Source of the DNA: Clostridia bacterium | GTDB lineage: Bacteria; Bacillota; Clostridia; Christensenellales; DTU072 | Assembly: GCA_017533505.1 (NCBI GenBank) | Contig: JAFXIB010000089.1 | Coordinates: 2,009-66,008, forward strand | Direction of reading: 5' to 3' | DNA: 64,000 nucleotides | Part shown: piece after piece, positions 3,964-53,848 of the stretch | Layout of the letters: every line of letters starts with the position of its first letter | Position numbering within the stretch: the first letter of the stretch is position 1 | Made by a program: the position numbers and the translations under genes | Notes under the pieces: model-generated | Database searches by the model: none | Seen by the model: the letters and a program-made list of their open reading frames with translations, nothing else | What the model was told of the DNA's origin: nothing

Positions 3964-4002
3964 ATCAAAATCCCCTTGAATATTGTTCTTATCTATTATA
4001 GC

Positions 4003-4028
4003 ATATCTTTAATTGGAATTAAAGATAT
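4003..4028. promoter_or_regulatory. 26-nt perfect palindrome (12-2-12) between the 4Fe-4S gene and the flavodiiron gene; candidate operator or weak terminator
   Basis: ATATCTTTAATT-GG-AATTAAAGATAT. On the minus strand it is followed immediately by gcTATAATag, so it occupies the -35 position of a putative flavodiiron-gene promoter. Confidence 0.35.
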
Positions 4029-4753
4029 TAATCCAAAATTTTTCCATCAGTTGAAATTGTTACAACTTGCCATGGTATAAACTTGCCACTATCCTTGAGA
4101 GCGCGCTTAACAGCACTCTCAATACCACCGCAGCAGGGAACCTCCATTCTTACTACTTTTACACTCTTAATATCATTGTTACTGATGATAGCAAGGAGCT
4201 TATCATAGTAGTCGCCGGCATCAAGCTTTGGGCATCCAATTAGTGTAATATGGTTTCTTATAAAGTCGTTATGAAAGTTACCATAAGCATATGCCGTACA
4301 GTCTGCTGCAATGAGCAAGTTTGCTCCATCAAAGTAAGGTGCATTGACCGGCACAAGCTTTATTTGACAAGGCCATTGTATAAGCTGACTTTGCACGCTA
4401 TCTCTTTTCAAAGGCTCTTGTGGGGCTCTCTTCATTGACTTAACATTCATACCAAGACAACCACATGGAAGTGGAGCACTCTCTGCTTTTTTGGCTTCAA
4501 TCACAGCCTTTTCGTCATATTCGGGAGCTTCTCTCTCTTCAAAGCTGATTGCTCCAGTTGGACAGGTAGGCAAGCAATCTCCAAGCCCATCACAATAATG
4601 CTCACGAGTAAGCTTTGCTACTCCGTTTACCATTTCAATAGCACCCTCGTGACAAGCTGTTGCACAAGCACCACATCCATTACATTTTTCTTCATCTATT
4701 TTGATTATCTTTCTTATCATATCTTTTTCCTTTCCATTAGAAACATTTACCAC
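4028..4753 (-). CDS. 4Fe-4S dicluster domain protein with a Cys-rich C-terminal domain
   Basis: CNGCGACATACHEGAI and CDGLGDCLPTCPTGAI are two ferredoxin-type CxxCxxCxxxCP motifs. Additional CPKLD and PCCGG motifs occur further on. The start overlaps the ldhA stop. Confidence 0.75.
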   Translation of the reverse strand: MVNVSNGKEKDMIRKIIKIDEEKCNGCGACATACHEGAIEMVNGVAKLTREHYCDGLGDCLPTCPTGAISFEEREAPEYDEKAVIEAKKAESAPLPCGCLGMNVKSMKRAPQEPLKRDSVQSQLIQWPCQIKLVPVNAPYFDGANLLIAADCTAYAYGNFHNDFIRNHITLIGCPKLDAGDYYDKLLAIISNNDIKSVKVVRMEVPCCGGIESAVKRALKDSGKFIPWQVVTISTDGKILD

Positions 4754-5771
4754 TTCTGCAGTCTACTGCACTTCCACCACGATAGCAAAGTTCATTTGGA
4801 CACTCTTTATTCCTACTATACTCTACAATATTATTTATCGTTGTTTCGGCTATATTCATCAAGGCTTCTTCGGTTAAGAACGCTTGATGTGAGGTTACAA
4901 TCACATTGGGCATTGAGATTAACCTTGCCAAAATATCATCGTCAAGTATGTGCCCAGAGTAGTCTTCAAAGAAGAAGTCTGCCTCTTCTTCGTAAACATC
5001 CAAGCAAGCACCACCTACTTTCCTTGCCTTGATGGCTTTGAGCAATGCTTCGGCATCTACAAGTGCACCACGCGATGTATTGAGTATGATTACTCCCTTT
5101 TTGCACTTTTCAAGTGATTGTTCATCTATAATATGATAGGTGTCTTCTGTCAAAGGGCAATGGAGTGATATTATATCAGCCTTTTCAAAAAGCTCATTAA
5201 GTTCGACATACTTTATATTTTCTCCATCTTCTAAACCCTCATATGGATACTTGTCATAAGCAAGAACTTTCATGCCGAATCCACGGCAAATATTGATGAA
5301 TACCCTACCAATTCTACCAGTACCGATTACGCCTACCGTTTTACCATAAAGGTCACATCCAGTCATGCCGGAAAGACTAAAATTGAAGTCGCGAGTGCGA
5401 ATGTATGCCTTGTGAATACGCCTAATAGATGTAAGTAACATCGCCATTGTATGCTCTGCAACTGCATATGGTGAGTATGCTGGCACCCTCAAAACATGAA
5501 TTTTGCCATATGCGTACTTTATATCTACATTGTTAAATCCTGCACATCTCAATGCTACAAGATTTACGCCATAATCGACAAGCTTATCAATTACTACGCT
5601 ATTAACATTATCGTTTACAAAAACACAAACGGCATCATATCCTTCTGCCAAAGAAGCTGTATCCTCGTTTAGCTTGGTTTCAAAATATTTTATGGTTATA
5701 CCCTGTTCCTTTGCGTACCTATCAAAAGAAGGCTTATCATAAGGTTTGGTATCAAAAAAAGCTATTTTCAT
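4737..5771 (-). CDS. ldhA: D-lactate dehydrogenase (D-isomer 2-hydroxyacid dehydrogenase)
   Basis: Collinear with E. coli LdhA as I recall it: LRCAGFNNVD, VPAYSPYAVAEH, GVIGTGRIG (NAD fold), NTSRGALVD, DVYEEE, TSHQAF, CPNEL. RBS aaggagg lies upstream. It carries about 17 extra C-terminal residues with 3 Cys. Confidence 0.9.
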   Translation of the reverse strand: MKIAFFDTKPYDKPSFDRYAKEQGITIKYFETKLNEDTASLAEGYDAVCVFVNDNVNSVVIDKLVDYGVNLVALRCAGFNNVDIKYAYGKIHVLRVPAYSPYAVAEHTMAMLLTSIRRIHKAYIRTRDFNFSLSGMTGCDLYGKTVGVIGTGRIGRVFINICRGFGMKVLAYDKYPYEGLEDGENIKYVELNELFEKADIISLHCPLTEDTYHIIDEQSLEKCKKGVIILNTSRGALVDAEALLKAIKARKVGGACLDVYEEEADFFFEDYSGHILDDDILARLISMPNVIVTSHQAFLTEEALMNIAETTINNIVEYSRNKECPNELCYRGGSAVDCRSGKCF

Positions 5772-5825
5772 TATAAACCTCCTTGCTTTTATGCCCCAAT
5801 TATAGTATATTTATAATATAAAGTA

Positions 5826-5841
5826 TGTTGAAATTTCAACA
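5826..5841. promoter_or_regulatory. 16-nt perfect palindrome TGTTGAAATTTCAACA in the ldhA/crp divergent region; Rex-box-like or Crp/Fnr operator candidate
   Basis: Self-complementary over 16 nt. With flanks (ATGTTGAAATTTCAACAA) it matches the clostridial-type Rex consensus TTGTTAA-N4-TTAACAA at 11 of 14 specified positions. It lies 55 nt upstream of ldhA and just downstream of a + strand TATAAT. Confidence 0.4.
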
Positions 5842-5854
5842 AAAAGGGTTTTTT

Positions 5855-6511
5855 ATGAAAAAGTATTTACCTATTCTTAAAAAATGTGCTCTATTCCATG
5901 GCATTAGTGATGATGATATCATGCGCATACTTGGTTGCCTAAAGGCAAAAGTTATTGAGCTTGACAAAAAGTATACTGTTTTTAGAGAAGGTACAACACA
6001 AAAGCATATTGGCATTTTACTTTCAGGGTCATTACATCTTATAAGAATGGATTACTATGGCAATAGGAGCATTCTCTCTGGCGTAGAAGCTGGAGAAACC
6101 TTCCTTGAAGCCTTTGCTTGCACCGAGACTGAACTTCCCCTATCCGTTATTGCAGACGAGCCAAGTGAGGTTATGATAATTGATGTAAGACATGTTTTGC
6201 ACACTTGTTCCAATTGTTGTGCTTTCCACCAACATCTAATATTTAATATAATGAAAATCCTTGCTACAAAAAACATTGCTTTCCACCAAAAGATAGATAT
6301 CACTTCCAAGCGCTCCACTCGTGAAAAGCTACTCACTTATCTAAACTATCAATCAAAAAAAGTAAATAGCAATGAATTCAACATTCCATTTGATAGGCAA
6401 GAACTTGCAGACTATCTTGAAGTGGAAAGAAGTGGACTATCGATGGAAATAAGCAAACTAAAAAACGAGGGCGTGATTGATAGCTACAAGAATTATTTTA
6501 AATTGATGTGA
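5855..6511 (+). CDS. Crp/Fnr family transcriptional regulator
   Basis: N-terminal cNMP-binding-like beta-roll (LFHGISDDDI ... FREGT), C-terminal HTH (TREKLLTYL ... FDRQELADYLEVERSGLSMEISKLKNEGVI). I prefer the ATG at 5855 (MKKYLPIL). The track start at 5825 lies inside the palindrome. Confidence 0.85.
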   Translation: MKKYLPILKKCALFHGISDDDIMRILGCLKAKVIELDKKYTVFREGTTQKHIGILLSGSLHLIRMDYYGNRSILSGVEAGETFLEAFACTETELPLSVIADEPSEVMIIDVRHVLHTCSNCCAFHQHLIFNIMKILATKNIAFHQKIDITSKRSTREKLLTYLNYQSKKVNSNEFNIPFDRQELADYLEVERSGLSMEISKLKNEGVIDSYKNYFKLM

Positions 6512-6519
6512 TTTAATAA

Positions 6520-6968
6520 CTGTTCGGTTTACTCGTCAGGTTTGCTTACGCAAACTAACGCATCCCCCTCGCTAAAGCGAGTGAAAGTTAGTTTTCTGTT
6601 TGTACTTTTGTTGCTACATCAACTACTGTGGCGCGGCTTAAGGAGCCACTCAAAGTTGCTTTTACTTGGCTTACCACACAACGACCTATCACGATGCCCT
6701 GTGCGTTTACAGCTGTTCGGTTTACTCGTCAGGTTTGCTTACGCAAACTAGCGCATCCCCCTCGCTAAAGCGAGTGAAAGTTAGTTTTCTGTTTGTACTT
6801 TTGTTGTTACACCAACTACTGTGGCGCGGCTTAAGGAGCCACTCGAAGTTGCTTTTGATTGGCTTACCACACAACGACCTATCACGATGCCCTGTGCGTT
6901 TACTGCTGTTCGGTTTACTCGTCAGGTTTGCCTTGGACAAGGCAAACTAGCGCATCCCCCTCGCTAAA
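6520..6968. repeat. Tandem repeat, 193-bp unit x 2.3 (6520-6712, 6713-6905, partial 6906-6968), immediately downstream of tRNA-Arg
   Basis: Units 1 and 2 differ at 7 of 193 positions. Each unit contains an exact 18-nt copy of the tRNA-Arg 3' end (TGGCGCGGCTTAAGGAGC at 6629-6646 and 6822-6839) and two small hairpins. Confidence 0.9.
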
Positions 6969-7000
6969 GCGAGTGAGATGCGCTACTCCATTAGCCGAGC

Positions 7001-7039
7001 AAAACAAAAGGATGTACCGATGTGTACATCCTTTTGTTT
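7001..7039 (-). terminator. Rho-independent terminator of tRNA-Arg
   Basis: A 17-bp stem, aaaacaaaaggatgtac / gtacatccttttgtttt, with a 6-nt loop. It begins at the CCA end of the tRNA, and on the minus strand the 3' arm ends in UUUUGUUUU. Confidence 0.75.
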
Positions 7040-7116
7040 TGGCGCGGCTTAAGGAGCTCGAATCCCTAACCTTTGGTTCCGTAGACCAACGCTCTATCCA
7101 ATTGAGCTAAAGCCGC
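7040..7116 (-). tRNA. tRNA-Arg (anticodon ACG), CCA encoded
   Basis: Minus strand: GCGGCTT-TA-GCTC-AATTGGATA-GAGC-G-TTGGT-CTACGGA-ACCAA-AGGTT-AGGGA-TTCGAGC-TCCTT-AAGCCGC-G-CCA. This folds as a full cloverleaf with a 7-bp acceptor stem, T-loop TTCGAGC, and anticodon loop CT-ACG-GA. Confidence 0.95.
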
Positions 7117-7136: not shown

Positions 7137-7165
7137 ATTATAGACTTATCGTTGACTTTTGTCAA
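7137..7165 (-). promoter_or_regulatory. Sigma-70/SigA-type promoter for tRNA-Arg
   Basis: Minus strand: TTGACA (7165-7160), 17-nt spacer, TATAAT (7142-7137). Both hexamers are consensus, about 20 nt upstream of the tRNA 5' end. Confidence 0.7.
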
Positions 7166-7196: not shown

Positions 7197-8105
7197 CTAT
7201 TTTGCGTAAAGTTCATCAAGATATTGATAAACTGCTTCCATTGTATCCTTTGAAGTCTTGGTCCAGAAGTTGAAGTGGTAGCAATGGTTATCAATGAGCT
7301 TGGTGGAGTGCTTTTCAACAAGTGGTACTCCTGCCTTGCGAATGTTTTCGCATAGGAATTCACCTTGTCCCTTGCAGAACAAATCCTTTTCGGATAAAGT
7401 GATTACGCAAGGTGGCCACTTTTCATTAACATATGTAGATGGGCTGATTTCGTTGAAATACTCATATTCTTCCTTGTTAGAATAGTCTTCATTGAAATCA
7501 AAGTGGGTATATCCTTCTGCAATACATCTTACCATACCAAATGGAATTTTGAGTTTGAGAGAAGATACAAGGTCATAGATGCCACAGAAGCTAATAAGAC
7601 CTGCTGGCTTGATTTCTGCAACGGGAAGACCAACCTTTTTGGTAAGTTCGTCGTCATATGCTGCTGCTACGCAGTAGGTTGCTGCATAAGCACCTGCAGA
7701 GTCGCCAGTAAGCACTACCTTGTCAAGATTTAAGCTATACTTTTCAGCAAGCACTTTGAGGAAGTTGAGTGCTGTGATTACATCGTATGGTAGAGCTGGG
7801 AATGCATACTTTGGAGACAAACGATAGTTGATGTTTACAACAAACCATCCTCTATCAGCATAGAGATGTGCAATACTCTTTCTGTGCTTTTTGTCGCCCT
7901 TAACAAAACCGCCGCCGTGAACATTTAGTACAACAGGCATTGGTTCAGTTGCACCTTCTTTATAGTAAATATCGCATTTGCATCTTTCGTACTCTGCGTT
8001 ATAAACTATATCCTTAACACACTTTACACCCTCTTTGTTGATGTAGTTTTGGAAAGGATGGAATAGAATATCAATAGCTTTGAAAACAAATTCGCCTCTA
8101 TTCAT
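7197..8105 (-). CDS. Alpha/beta hydrolase (esterase/lipase, HSL-like family)
   Basis: Oxyanion motif HGGGF and nucleophile elbow GDSAGA, with candidate Asp/His near the C-terminus (EKDLF, DNHCYHF). Confidence 0.8.
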   Translation of the reverse strand: MNRGEFVFKAIDILFHPFQNYINKEGVKCVKDIVYNAEYERCKCDIYYKEGATEPMPVVLNVHGGGFVKGDKKHRKSIAHLYADRGWFVVNINYRLSPKYAFPALPYDVITALNFLKVLAEKYSLNLDKVVLTGDSAGAYAATYCVAAAYDDELTKKVGLPVAEIKPAGLISFCGIYDLVSSLKLKIPFGMVRCIAEGYTHFDFNEDYSNKEEYEYFNEISPSTYVNEKWPPCVITLSEKDLFCKGQGEFLCENIRKAGVPLVEKHSTKLIDNHCYHFNFWTKTSKDTMEAVYQYLDELYAK

Positions 8106-50521: not shown

Positions 50522-50597
<76 letters not shown>

Positions 50598-50599
50598 TT

Positions 50600-50640
50600 A
50601 AATAGAAAAACACGCATGTTAAGTGCGTGTTTTTCTATTT
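50600..50640 (+). terminator. Rho-independent terminator of tRNA-Thr
   Basis: A 17-bp stem, aaatagaaaaacacgca / tgcgtgtttttctattt, with a 7-nt loop. It is built the same way as the tRNA-Arg terminator (A-tract pairs with T-tract). Confidence 0.8.
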
Positions 50641-50704
50641 AATCACGCTATTGAGGACAATATACTCGCTTGTTTTAACAAGCAAGGTGCATTAGTTTGG
50701 CTTT
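50611..50704. repeat. Direct repeat copy 1 (94 bp) downstream of tRNA-Thr
   Basis: cacgcatgttaagtgcgtgtttttctatttaatcacgctattgaggacaatatactcgcttgttttaacaagcaaggtgcattagtttggcttt. It recurs 236 bp downstream with 5 mismatches. Confidence 0.9.
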
Positions 50705-50846
50705 GCCAAACCTGGCGAAAGCAAATGCTTTGCATTTGGGTGCATTATCATCAAACATATGTATTTTACAAGTTCATCATCTTATCATAATACCATACTT
50801 TGTATGAGACATTCTTTCGCTGTCCCGTCACAATCTACCGATACTT

Positions 50847-50940
50847 CACGCATGTCAAGTGCGTGTTTTTCTATTTAATCACGCTATTGGAGACAATATA
50901 CTCGATTGTTTTAACAAGCAGGGTGCATTAGTTTGGCTTT
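50847..50940. repeat. Direct repeat copy 2 (94 bp)
   Basis: About 95% identical to 50611-50704. It is preceded at 50822-50830 by GTCCCGTCA, which matches the tRNA-Thr T-stem/acceptor junction at 50580-50588. Confidence 0.9.
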
Positions 50941-52666: not shown

Positions 52667-53848
52667 ATGGATTACTCAAAAATTATCAGCCAAAAAGCTC
52701 AATCTATCCCACCATCAGGTATTAGAAAGTTTTTTGATATAGCGGCTGATATGAAAGATTGCATTTCACTTGGCATCGGTGAGCCCGATTTTATAACCGC
52801 GGCTTCTTTTAGTGATGCAGGTATTGCAAGCATCAAAGAAGGTAAGACACAGTATACATCAAACGATGGTTTGTTTGCTCTTCGTAAAAATATTTGTAAA
52901 TATGTTCACATGCTTGGTGGCCCACTTTATGCTCCCGAAGATGAGGTTTTGGTTACCGTAGGTGCATCTGAAGCTATCGATGTATCTTTCCGTGCACTCC
53001 TTGACCCAGGCGACGAAGTACTTATCCCTGCACCATCTTATGTTTCCTATGCACCATGTGTTGAGCTCTGTCATGCTGTACCAAAGGCAATCAACTGCAA
53101 GGCAGAAAATCAGTTTAAGCTCACCCCAGATGAACTTGAAGAAGCCATCACTCCAAAGACCAAAGTTCTTGTTCTCCCATATCCAAACAACCCAACGGGC
53201 GCAATCATGGAAGAGCAATATCTAAAAGCTATTGCACCAGTAATTATCAAGCATAATCTCATCGTTGTATCCGACGAAGTTTACGGCGAGCTTACCTATG
53301 GCGCAACACATACCTCCATTGCAAACATCGAGGGTATGCGCGAAAGAACCATTCTTATCAACGGTTTCTCCAAGATTTTTGCTATGACTGGCTGGAGAAT
53401 TGGTTATCTATGCGCTCCACACGAGCTTGTAAGTGTAATAAGAAAAATACACCAATATGTTATCATGTGCGCTCCTACTGCAAGCCAATATGCTGCAACA
53501 GCTGCATTGGAGTTAAGCTTCAAAAATGGCTTCCAAGAAGTAGAAGATATGTGCCGTCAATACAACGAAAGAAGAGTATATCTTGTAAAGCGCTTGAACG
53601 ATATGGGACTAACTTGTTTTGAGCCAAAGGGTGCATTCTACGCCTTCCCGTCAGTAGCTTCAACAGGACTTGACGGAAGAGAGTTTGCAGAGCAACTTCT
53701 CCTTACCCACAAGGTTGCAGTTGTACCAGGCATTGCATTTGGCGAAAGTGGCAGAAACCACATCCGTATTTCCTATGCTTCCTCCCTTGATAACATCAAA
53801 ACTGCTCTTGATAGAATGGAACATTTTGTAAATTCCCTTAAAAAATAA
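52667..53848 (+). CDS. Class I/II PLP-dependent aminotransferase (aspartate/aromatic type)
   Basis: GEPDF, YPNNPTGA, SDEVYGEL, PLP-lysine motif FSKIFAMTGWRIGY, and a C-terminal R in IRISYA. Confidence 0.85.
   Translation: MDYSKIISQKAQSIPPSGIRKFFDIAADMKDCISLGIGEPDFITAASFSDAGIASIKEGKTQYTSNDGLFALRKNICKYVHMLGGPLYAPEDEVLVTVGASEAIDVSFRALLDPGDEVLIPAPSYVSYAPCVELCHAVPKAINCKAENQFKLTPDELEEAITPKTKVLVLPYPNNPTGAIMEEQYLKAIAPVIIKHNLIVVSDEVYGELTYGATHTSIANIEGMRERTILINGFSKIFAMTGWRIGYLCAPHELVSVIRKIHQYVIMCAPTASQYAATAALELSFKNGFQEVEDMCRQYNERRVYLVKRLNDMGLTCFEPKGAFYAFPSVASTGLDGREFAEQLLLTHKVAVVPGIAFGESGRNHIRISYASSLDNIKTALDRMEHFVNSLKK

Follow-up and report, generated by a model that had tools for sequence, protein, structure and literature searches.

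We examined a 64,000-nucleotide stretch of a Clostridia bacterium contig (JAFXIB010000089.1, positions 2,009 to 66,008), referred to below as the window, and in particular a tandem array next to a tRNA-Arg gene. The tRNA-Arg(ACG) gene is located at 7040–7116 on the minus strand (ARAGORN; Rfam tRNA, 62.6 bits) and encodes its CCA end. An esterase gene (7197–8105) lies upstream of it on the same strand. Downstream, the array occupies the gap between the tRNA-Arg terminator and the stop codon of a convergent Crp/Fnr-like gene (5825–6511, plus strand). Each repeat unit contains a copy of the tRNA 3′ end and an element with predicted hairpins, designated H, and the order of these parts repeats that found after the tRNA gene itself. 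We consider it probable that the array, in its origin and architecture, arose when the segment forming the 3′ module of tRNA-Arg(ACG) was duplicated in tandem. The alternative of a trail of integration scars was not supported.

The array spans 6520–6976 with a period of 193, 2.3 copies, and 95% matches (Tandem Repeats Finder). Unit 1 (6520–6712, minus strand) ends 8 nt past the stop codon of the Crp/Fnr-like gene and is followed by unit 2 (6713–6905, minus strand). The two units differ at 7 of 193 positions (6558, 6614, 6619, 6652, 6664, 6665, and 6711), precisely as the initial annotation had counted. The sequence copied in every unit is the last 18 nt of tRNA-Arg (7040–7057). This 18-mer, TGGCGCGGCTTAAGGAGC, occurs in three exact copies at 6629, 6822, and 7040, also as annotated, and fragments identical to the tRNA 3′ end are thus displaced downstream of the intact gene. 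Shuffled sequences gave an expectation of 0.02 matches, even with three mismatches tolerated. Read on the tRNA strand, a unit begins with the tRNA 3′ end copy, continues through a 45-nt spacer (S) and H, and runs through a tail of approximately 55 nt into the next copy. In unit 1, these parts are the tRNA-3′-end block at 6629–6657 (18-mer at 6629–6646), S at 6584–6628, H at 6521–6583, and the tail at 6658–6712. The corresponding parts of unit 2 are at 6822–6850 (18-mer at 6822–6839), 6777–6821, 6714–6776, and 6851–6905, the last of which is also referred to as the psi body. The order after the real tRNA-Arg is alike: the tRNA 3′ end, 66 nt of terminator and an inverted tRNA end designated anti, and then H. 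The third, partial unit described previously exists, but ends at 6976 rather than 6968 and does not merge directly into the terminator; the intervening 6977–6999 comprises the 5′ strand of a long hairpin and 15 nt (6986–7000) that repeat the tRNA 3′ end imperfectly and in inverted orientation. No conserved open reading frame (ORF) was present within the 193-bp units. Similarly, no promoter-like or terminator-like site was observed in any unit, promoters having been scanned on both strands.

The array is real and not an assembly artefact, because the same arrangement was assembled independently in three samples and other arrangements occur in relatives. The identical 2.3-unit array, with the same seven unit-specific differences, was recovered separately in L001/L020, L021, and L023 (L numbers denote the contigs and loci of relatives), and coherent yet different arrays were found in L005, L011, and L012. 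The expansion of one unit or the collapse of a longer array during assembly, which had been named as a possible refutation, retains a negligible probability, although many short-read contigs of the species break in or just past the tRNA, indicating that the region is hard to assemble. Contigs L002–L004, L006, and L008–L010 end 109–252 nt beyond the esterase stop codon, within or just past tRNA-Arg. These breaks suggest that, besides the local repeat, further identical tRNA-Arg(ACG) genes are present elsewhere in the genome.

The tRNA 3′ end (7040–7057), the terminator (7000–7041), and anti (6986–7000) together form a long quasi-palindrome at 6986–7057. The terminator is bidirectional, with an A-tract, a stem-loop, and a T-tract, and its 18-bp perfect arms (7000–7017 and 7024–7041) are 100% complementary. 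Anti, which was not noted in the initial annotation, is an imperfect inverted copy of the tRNA-Arg 3′ end. The tRNA 3′ strand, terminator, and anti are predicted to fold as a single long hairpin (minimum free energy of −101 kcal/mol over 237 nt, z = −7.5), and the tRNA 3′ strand is paired with anti in the minimum free energy fold of the window. The terminator loop (7018–7023, tRNA strand) reads ACATCG in the window, L001, and L021 and CGATGT in L002, L005, and L007, and the stems are identical. This flip is the type of inversion given by recombination between the arms of a palindrome. An opposite-strand tRNA-like cloverleaf closed by GUUCGGU/GCCGAGC was also considered; it pairs in the window, but was rejected because it fails in L011, L014, and L015, in which anti differs.

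The tRNA-Arg gene has a sigma-70 consensus promoter, TTGACA-17-TATAAT (7137–7165, minus strand; 12/12 promoter match). A perfect 11-bp inverted repeat (7123–7133/7147–7157) with the arms AGTCAACGATA/TATCGTTGACT encloses the −10 box in a loop of 13 nt. The equivalent arms in L011 are changed (GTCGGCGAT/ATCGCTGAC) and their complementarity is largely kept. This inverted repeat may be an operator or a structure located where the esterase transcript ends.

H is approximately 65–100 nt in length and is built from two hairpins, hp1 and hp2 (GTTTG...CAAAC), with the near-invariant GGGATGCGCTAG between them and the motif CTGAYGA after hp2. The copy proximal to the tRNA (6907–6985, minus strand) was delineated by an nhmmer match at 6907–6975, the inverted repeats I2 and I6, and covariation counts. 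Its long hairpin (6948–6965/6968–6985) has hp1, CTCGC-TAAA-GCGAG, at the tip, and the copy also holds the conserved CTAGCGCATCCC, a long form of hp2 (6926–6947), and CTCGTCAG, which is CUGACGAG on the tRNA strand. Both hairpins of the units and the longer hairpin of the partial unit had been recognized previously and are present as described, the arms of the longer one (6926–6935/6938–6947) being 100% complementary. It had not been recognized that they belong to an element shared across species.

We aligned 17 H copies by hand, 14 from the tRNA-Arg loci of eight lineages and three from a second locus at a tRNA-Thr gene, and counted pairs for the inner stem with hp1 and for hp2 with a 3-bp extension. 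In this hand-fitted alignment, 92.3% of the cells formed standard pairs, versus 74.9% in shuffles, and none of 500 shuffles reached the observed value. When the partners were slid by 1–3 columns, only 24–53% of the cells paired. The covariation proposed as a check was found among these homologous copies, with 14 of 29 pairs changed on both sides, again as aligned by hand. The stem variants of hp1 included TCGC/GCGA, TCGTGC/GCACGA, ATTCGC/GCGAAT, and CCGCAACGCA/TGCGTTGCGG, and those of hp2 included GTTTGC/GCAAAC, TTTTTAGCC/GGCTAAAAA, and GTTTCGTCC/GGGCGAAAC. In L015, GATGCAC and CTGATGA replace GATGCGC and CTGACGA, such that a G-C pair is kept as A-U. Judging from these alignments, H is a predicted structured element with two covarying hairpins. 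The outer stem of the long hairpin, UAGCGC/GCGCUA, was discarded as support because both of its sides changed in parallel in L015 (GCGC to GCAC), which is not compensatory; therefore, the case for structure is confined to the inner part, hp1, hp2, and the 3-bp extension.

No described family accounted for H. Scans of the window and of seven related loci with Rfam 15 gave no match to H at E ≤ 10; only the tRNA exceeded its threshold, and the other hits (25 bits or less) were well under their gathering scores. The hammerhead ribozyme has the conserved core CUGANGA ... GAAA ... UH around three stems, and H resembles the type II form in its three-way topology, with an A-U-closed stem, one unpaired A, a hairpin, and CUGAYGA. 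However, the GAA strand is absent (GAGU), CUGGCGA in the Thr copy breaks the core, and no Rfam hammerhead model matched at E ≤ 10. A K-turn or box C/D motif (CUGAYGA with GUGAUAG) was rejected because the flanks of hp2 give no tandem G.A pairs. An integron attC site was rejected because GTTTGC...GCAAAC of hp2 has the wrong order and the wrong consensus relative to RYYYAAC (R″) and GTTRRRY (R′), and no integrase was found among the 40 ORFs scanned. The ends of IS200/IS605-type elements were also rejected; their consensus boxes are missing, the two hairpins are dissimilar, and the element is not dispersed. A full-text search of the literature found no description of such an element.

Relatives were reached through contigs with an identical esterase or Crp-like protein and then through esterase homologues. 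When each GTDB species was represented by one genome and scanned with a 23-nt unit pattern, a single genome matched, "Clostridia bacterium RGIG4281" (L011), a metagenome-assembled genome from roe-deer colon, and the match lies at the corresponding locus, with the Crp-like gene on one side and tRNA-Arg on the other. Unit number varied among the relatives. The window, L001, and L021 have 2.3 units, L005 has 1.3 (one fewer than the window), L007 has at least 2.3, L011 has 2.5 units of 192 bp, and L012 has three diverged units; L024, L025, and L036 have H and no extra unit. In L005 and L007, the 18-mer has the variant form GCCGTGCC. Units are 96–98% identical within one genome versus approximately 80% between species, which indicates concerted evolution or recent re-amplification.

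The tRNA-Arg(ACG) gene follows the esterase gene down to 63% amino-acid identity of the esterase and is lost at approximately 60%. The tRNA-bearing related loci are L012/L013, L014, L036–L038, L015, L024, and L025. A layout of tRNA-Arg(ACG), bidirectional terminator, anti, and H is common to seven related lineages. Anti, found in all seven, is at each tRNA-bearing locus an imperfect inverted copy of the last 15–18 nt of the tRNA (GGCGCGTCTTAAGGAGT in L012). In L025, the acceptor stem is altered to GCGCCTT/AAGGCGC and anti is altered in step to GCGCGCCTTAA. The number of H copies equals the number of 3′-end copies, the tRNA being counted: 3/3 in the window, L011, and L012, 2/2 in L005, and 1/1 in L024, L025, and L036. 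The order of 3′ end, a spacer of 45–66 nt, and H is common to the real tRNA and each copy. In L015, the sequence after the tRNA-end copy is CAAAAAAG, with which the real terminator of that species begins.

One unit of L012 (4468–4574; also in L013) has an insertion of approximately five tandem 23-nt repeats with small hairpins such as CAATGC-GAA-GCATTG, and the same interval gave a sub-threshold Rfam hit to Gut-1 (24 bits versus a gathering score of 50). Genes for a Crp-like protein, a 2-hydroxyacid dehydrogenase, and a ferredoxin lie downstream of the tRNA-Arg module in the window (3964–6511) and not in L012 (4720–4868); a TIR-NACHT defence-like gene is found there in L025 (4252–6909) and a kinase gene in L036 (2916–3719). 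Since the downstream gene content differs among relatives, the flank of the module is a hotspot of change. No copy of the 18-mer was present at the far side of these differences. L028–L035, with esterases of approximately 60% identity, have neither tRNA-Arg nor the module, and a convergent gene for a 393-aa aminotransferase starts approximately 70 bp after the esterase gene. An aminotransferase-like gene of equal length and with the same Pfam families is located near tRNA-Thr in the window (52667–53848).

The window has a second tRNA gene, tRNA-Thr(GGU) (50522–50597, plus strand; ARAGORN and Rfam), and it shows the same layout, which also was not previously noted. The Thr-locus module (50586–50760, plus strand) consists of a palindrome and an H-like element (fold z = −6.7). 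The palindrome joins the tRNA 3′ end to anti across the terminator, with arms at 50586–50616 and 50624–50654 that are 87% complementary. The H-like element comprises hp1 (CTCGCTTG/CAAGCAAG), GGTGCATTAG, hp2 (GTTTGGC/GCCAAAC), CTGGCGA, and a third hairpin. It was matched by nhmmer at 50667–50726 with E = 4e-9, the profile of nine H copies including this Thr copy. A partial second module (50823–50940, plus strand; direct repeat D1 and strain comparison) follows 236 bp downstream as a 94-nt, 95% identical copy that covers the terminator, anti, and the first part of H. Ahead of this copy lie 9 nt of the tRNA-Thr T-arm, GTCCCGTCA (50823–50831), and a stretch resembling the Thr promoter (p = 0.04). 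This decayed promoter-like stretch suggests that the whole tRNA may once have been duplicated at the Thr locus. The second module is cut short in the window and complete in strain L111, in which it is 55 nt longer; strain differences at this locus are mostly in hairpin loops. The H profile detected no further copies in the 64-kb window beyond the Arg and Thr loci. Because the two loci share the layout and a duplicate starting in the T-arm, we concluded that the terminator, anti, and H, with such a duplicate, are a family feature of stand-alone tRNA genes here and not an oddity of one locus.

The comparison with L011 indicated which parts of the array are constrained. The esterase genes of the window and L011 are 83% identical in nucleotides, and their synonymous third positions are 56% identical. 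H is identical at 64 of 64 positions (P ~1e-16 at 56% per site), the 29-nt tRNA-end block AACTTCGAGTGGCTCCTTAAGCCGCGCCA at 29 of 29 (P ~5e-8 at 56% per site), and a further block, GTGATAGGTCGTTGTGTG, at 18 of 18. A block of approximately 100 nt from the end of anti through H is near-perfect, and the terminator and spacer S are approximately 50% identical. As H and the 29-nt block are identical between species with 56% synonymous identity, both are constrained; H is under purifying selection, the tRNA-end copy is probably so as well, and they therefore do something. The tRNA-end copy is also identical over 19–23 nt in L012 and L015, in which the flanks are unalignable. Beside the copied block, the copies have an insertion of three nucleotides that the tRNA lacks (TGA in L015; TGG in L011, L012, and the window). 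Since they share this insertion, repeated gene conversion from the tRNA is an unlikely cause of the identity of the block.

The proposed tandem duplication would have had its start within or close to the T-loop, where the long palindrome has its foot, and ended downstream of H. Each unit would hence contain the last 18–29 nt of the tRNA, a spacer that is perhaps the decayed terminator and anti, H, and a tail. The H copies, identical over 64 nt, may then allow unit number to shift through slippage or unequal homologous recombination, a mechanism that we infer, and the copies would be homogenized within a genome by concerted evolution. The palindrome itself may promote rearrangement, as suggested by the start of the duplication at its foot at both loci and by the inversion of the terminator loop between strains. 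Of the three origins offered by the initial annotation, an amplified degenerate tRNA gene unit came closest; the 3′ end and the downstream module are duplicated in order, but a copy of the whole tRNA body was not evident at the Arg locus. Tandem duplication with pseudogenization, as in tRNA pseudogenes and tandem small-RNA paralogues, likewise gives head-to-tail units of strain-variable number that are closer within a genome than between species, with distal copies that are not recognized as tRNAs. In contrast to these pseudogenes, the array keeps the last 18–29 nt and the non-coding flank rather than the gene, and both are far above neutral conservation.

Several observations weigh against this duplication or against what we attribute to H. 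The evidence is drawn entirely from metagenome contigs, all belonging to a single uncultured Clostridia clade, and the alignment of H was fitted by hand to the structure, which inflates the pairing counts. S may be a decayed form of the terminator and anti, but its similarity to them in local alignments against shuffles was weak (p = 0.024 in L011; the window gave 0.17 and L012 gave 0.57). The faint similarity to a tRNA body reported for the tail was also statistically weak (p = 0.03–0.5 versus shuffles), and its GCAC...GTGAT parts recur after H in relatives that have no 3′-end copy. The lack of a promoter within the units in either direction bears on the transcribed strand of H. Its stem cells, read on the tRNA strand, comprise 303 Watson-Crick, 22 G.U (seven distinct), and nine A.C (five distinct) cells, and this excess of G.U over A.C weakly favors the tRNA strand. 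Furthermore, the 18–29-nt block remains identical to the tRNA end across lineages with 68% esterase amino-acid identity. A decaying junk duplicate would not be expected to show this identity or the shared 3-nt insertion, and ordinary gene conversion would need a longer block than this one, which hints at a possible function of the tRNA-end copies themselves.

That last point leads to the possibility that the units are functional RNAs, with H and the tRNA-end copy (approximately 150 nt) being cut from a read-through or 3′ untranslated region transcript and the minihelix with CCA acting as a tRNA-end mimic, that is, a decoy or substrate for tRNA-processing, CCA-adding, or tRNA-sensing machinery. 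The initial annotation had similarly offered tRNA-mimicking RNAs, and the conservation of the 29-nt block agrees with this, as do the islands GTGATAGGTCGTTGTGTG and GTAAACGCACA, identical in the window and L011 despite 56% synonymous identity, the core unchanged in L012 and L015, and variable patches at the would-be loops; anti, if paired with the downstream tRNA-end copy, could also form the closing stem of the first unit. However, the units are without their own promoter-like and terminator-like sites, three relatives have H without a tRNA-end copy, the Thr-locus copy retains only 9 nt of the tRNA end, and no Rfam family matched. The minihelix can be drawn as was proposed, and its 6-bp GUGGCU/AGCCGC stem is present in the window, L011, and L012. 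No covariation was seen in this stem, two of the six pairs are lost in L015, CCA reads CCC in L012, and the minihelix is not conserved at the Thr locus. We regard this explanation as unlikely. A role of H as DNA, either as a single-stranded hairpin site of the HUH nuclease or relaxase type or through the palindrome as a fragile site, appears improbable to us; in either form, the palindrome would have broken repeatedly, with template switching, and the array would have been left as a by-product. The stems are nearly all Watson-Crick on both strands, and the position of an invariant motif directly after a hairpin is reminiscent of nick sites. The inverted terminator loop points to recombination between the palindrome arms, at whose foot the duplications start at both loci. 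On the other side, no gene for an HUH protein, relaxase, or transposase was found in the window (40 of 43 ORFs scanned), and H is vertically inherited at a single locus and not dispersed. The tRNA strand has somewhat more G.U than A.C pairs, and in L015 GAUGCRC and CUGAYGA are joined by a compensatory change from G-C to A-U.

It is very improbable that the 18-mers are duplicated attachment (att) cores and the units gene-less remnants of tRNA-targeting elements, left by serial insertion or by an integrase acting in trans, which was another of the origins first offered. The copies span the T-loop to the 3′ end at both tRNA loci, the start in the T-loop being the classic crossover position of tyrosine integrases, and gene content downstream of tRNA-Arg varies among relatives. 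A regenerated tRNA with a displaced fragment is, moreover, the hallmark of tRNA gene (tDNA) islands in the Islander definition (PMC4383910). Measured against that definition, exact tRNA 3′ end repeats past an intact tRNA, the T-loop start, and variable downstream genes are alike, but the array has no integrase or cargo, its units are only 193 bp, H follows every repeat including the last, and H also occurs in relatives without any repeat. Pfam scans of 40 of the 43 window ORFs of at least 150 aa and of two shorter ORFs detected no integrase, transposase, relaxase, or reverse transcriptase families, in agreement with the previous statement that no integrase is nearby; the proteins scanned are of housekeeping and transport type (pyrimidine synthesis, ABC transporters, and glycosidases). 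BLAST of the region against phages and plasmids gave matches only through the tRNA. Viral contigs did not contain the exact unit patterns, and the 72 loci that they yielded with degenerate H patterns all scored 14 bits or less against the H profile and were not genuine. In JGI metagenomes, the H pattern had no matches and the pseudo-core pattern four chance matches. Tandem duplication rather than serial integration is favored because the H copy number always equals the 3′-end copy number. In addition, the last core is followed by another H and not by a distinct native flank, and the intact terminator adjoins the real tRNA and not the far end. H is vertically conserved at the locus even without a second core, and the 3-nt insertion beside the core in the copies and the core variant in L005 and L007 also count against att cores.

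Concerning function, we tentatively propose, at less than even confidence, that H functions as RNA of the tRNA-strand sense, within transcripts that start at the very strong tRNA promoter and run on past the terminator. This strand is favored because read-through from the tRNA promoter is the sole source of transcription common to the lineages, the neighboring genes being different. In such a transcript, anti could pair with the 3′ strand of its own tRNA or with a downstream tRNA-end copy, and the result might be a handle for the processing or decay of read-through tRNA precursors. It is a more speculative and rather unlikely possibility that H, anti, and the tRNA-end copies represent a new class of structured RNA linked to tRNA genes and produced by read-through, with anti switching between its own 3′ strand and the decoy copy. 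If so, read-through tRNA precursors would mature or decay depending on this switch, or it would set tRNA-end mimics free, and amplification would tune the dose.

Two known systems resemble parts of this arrangement. The 3′ external transcribed spacer of Escherichia coli leuZ sponges small RNAs and is also a conserved non-tRNA sequence right after a tRNA, as is H, which could likewise become RNA from the tRNA transcript. However, H lies beyond an intrinsic terminator, is predicted to be highly structured, and is accompanied by an antisense tRNA end and tandem repeats. The primer-binding site of retroviruses and long terminal repeat elements comprises 18 nt complementary to a tRNA 3′ end. Here too, a stretch of approximately 15–18 nt forms the complement of one specific tRNA's 3′ end and includes the CCA-proximal bases; anti is this complement when the tRNA strand is read, and the 18-mers are when the opposite strand is read. 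In contrast to a primer-binding site, no reverse transcriptase was found among the 40 ORFs scanned, and the complement is imperfect, in cis, and the outer part of the tRNA's own terminator palindrome.

A tandem duplicate of variable copy number is ordinary in itself. The features for which our search found no earlier description are the antisense tRNA end within a terminator palindrome and the conserved two-hairpin element after two tRNA genes, which matched no described RNA family. Exact copies of a tRNA 3′ end are routinely read as the footprints of integrases, and the same signature here probably stems from tandem duplication of a 3′ flank; pipelines that search for islands need to take into account that duplication can mimic such a footprint. 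H and the antisense tRNA end are conserved as tightly as the tRNA between species with near-saturated synonymous sites. If transcribed, they would constitute a new kind of tRNA-linked RNA in uncultured gut Clostridia, and the variation in copy number among strains and species would provide a natural dosage series.

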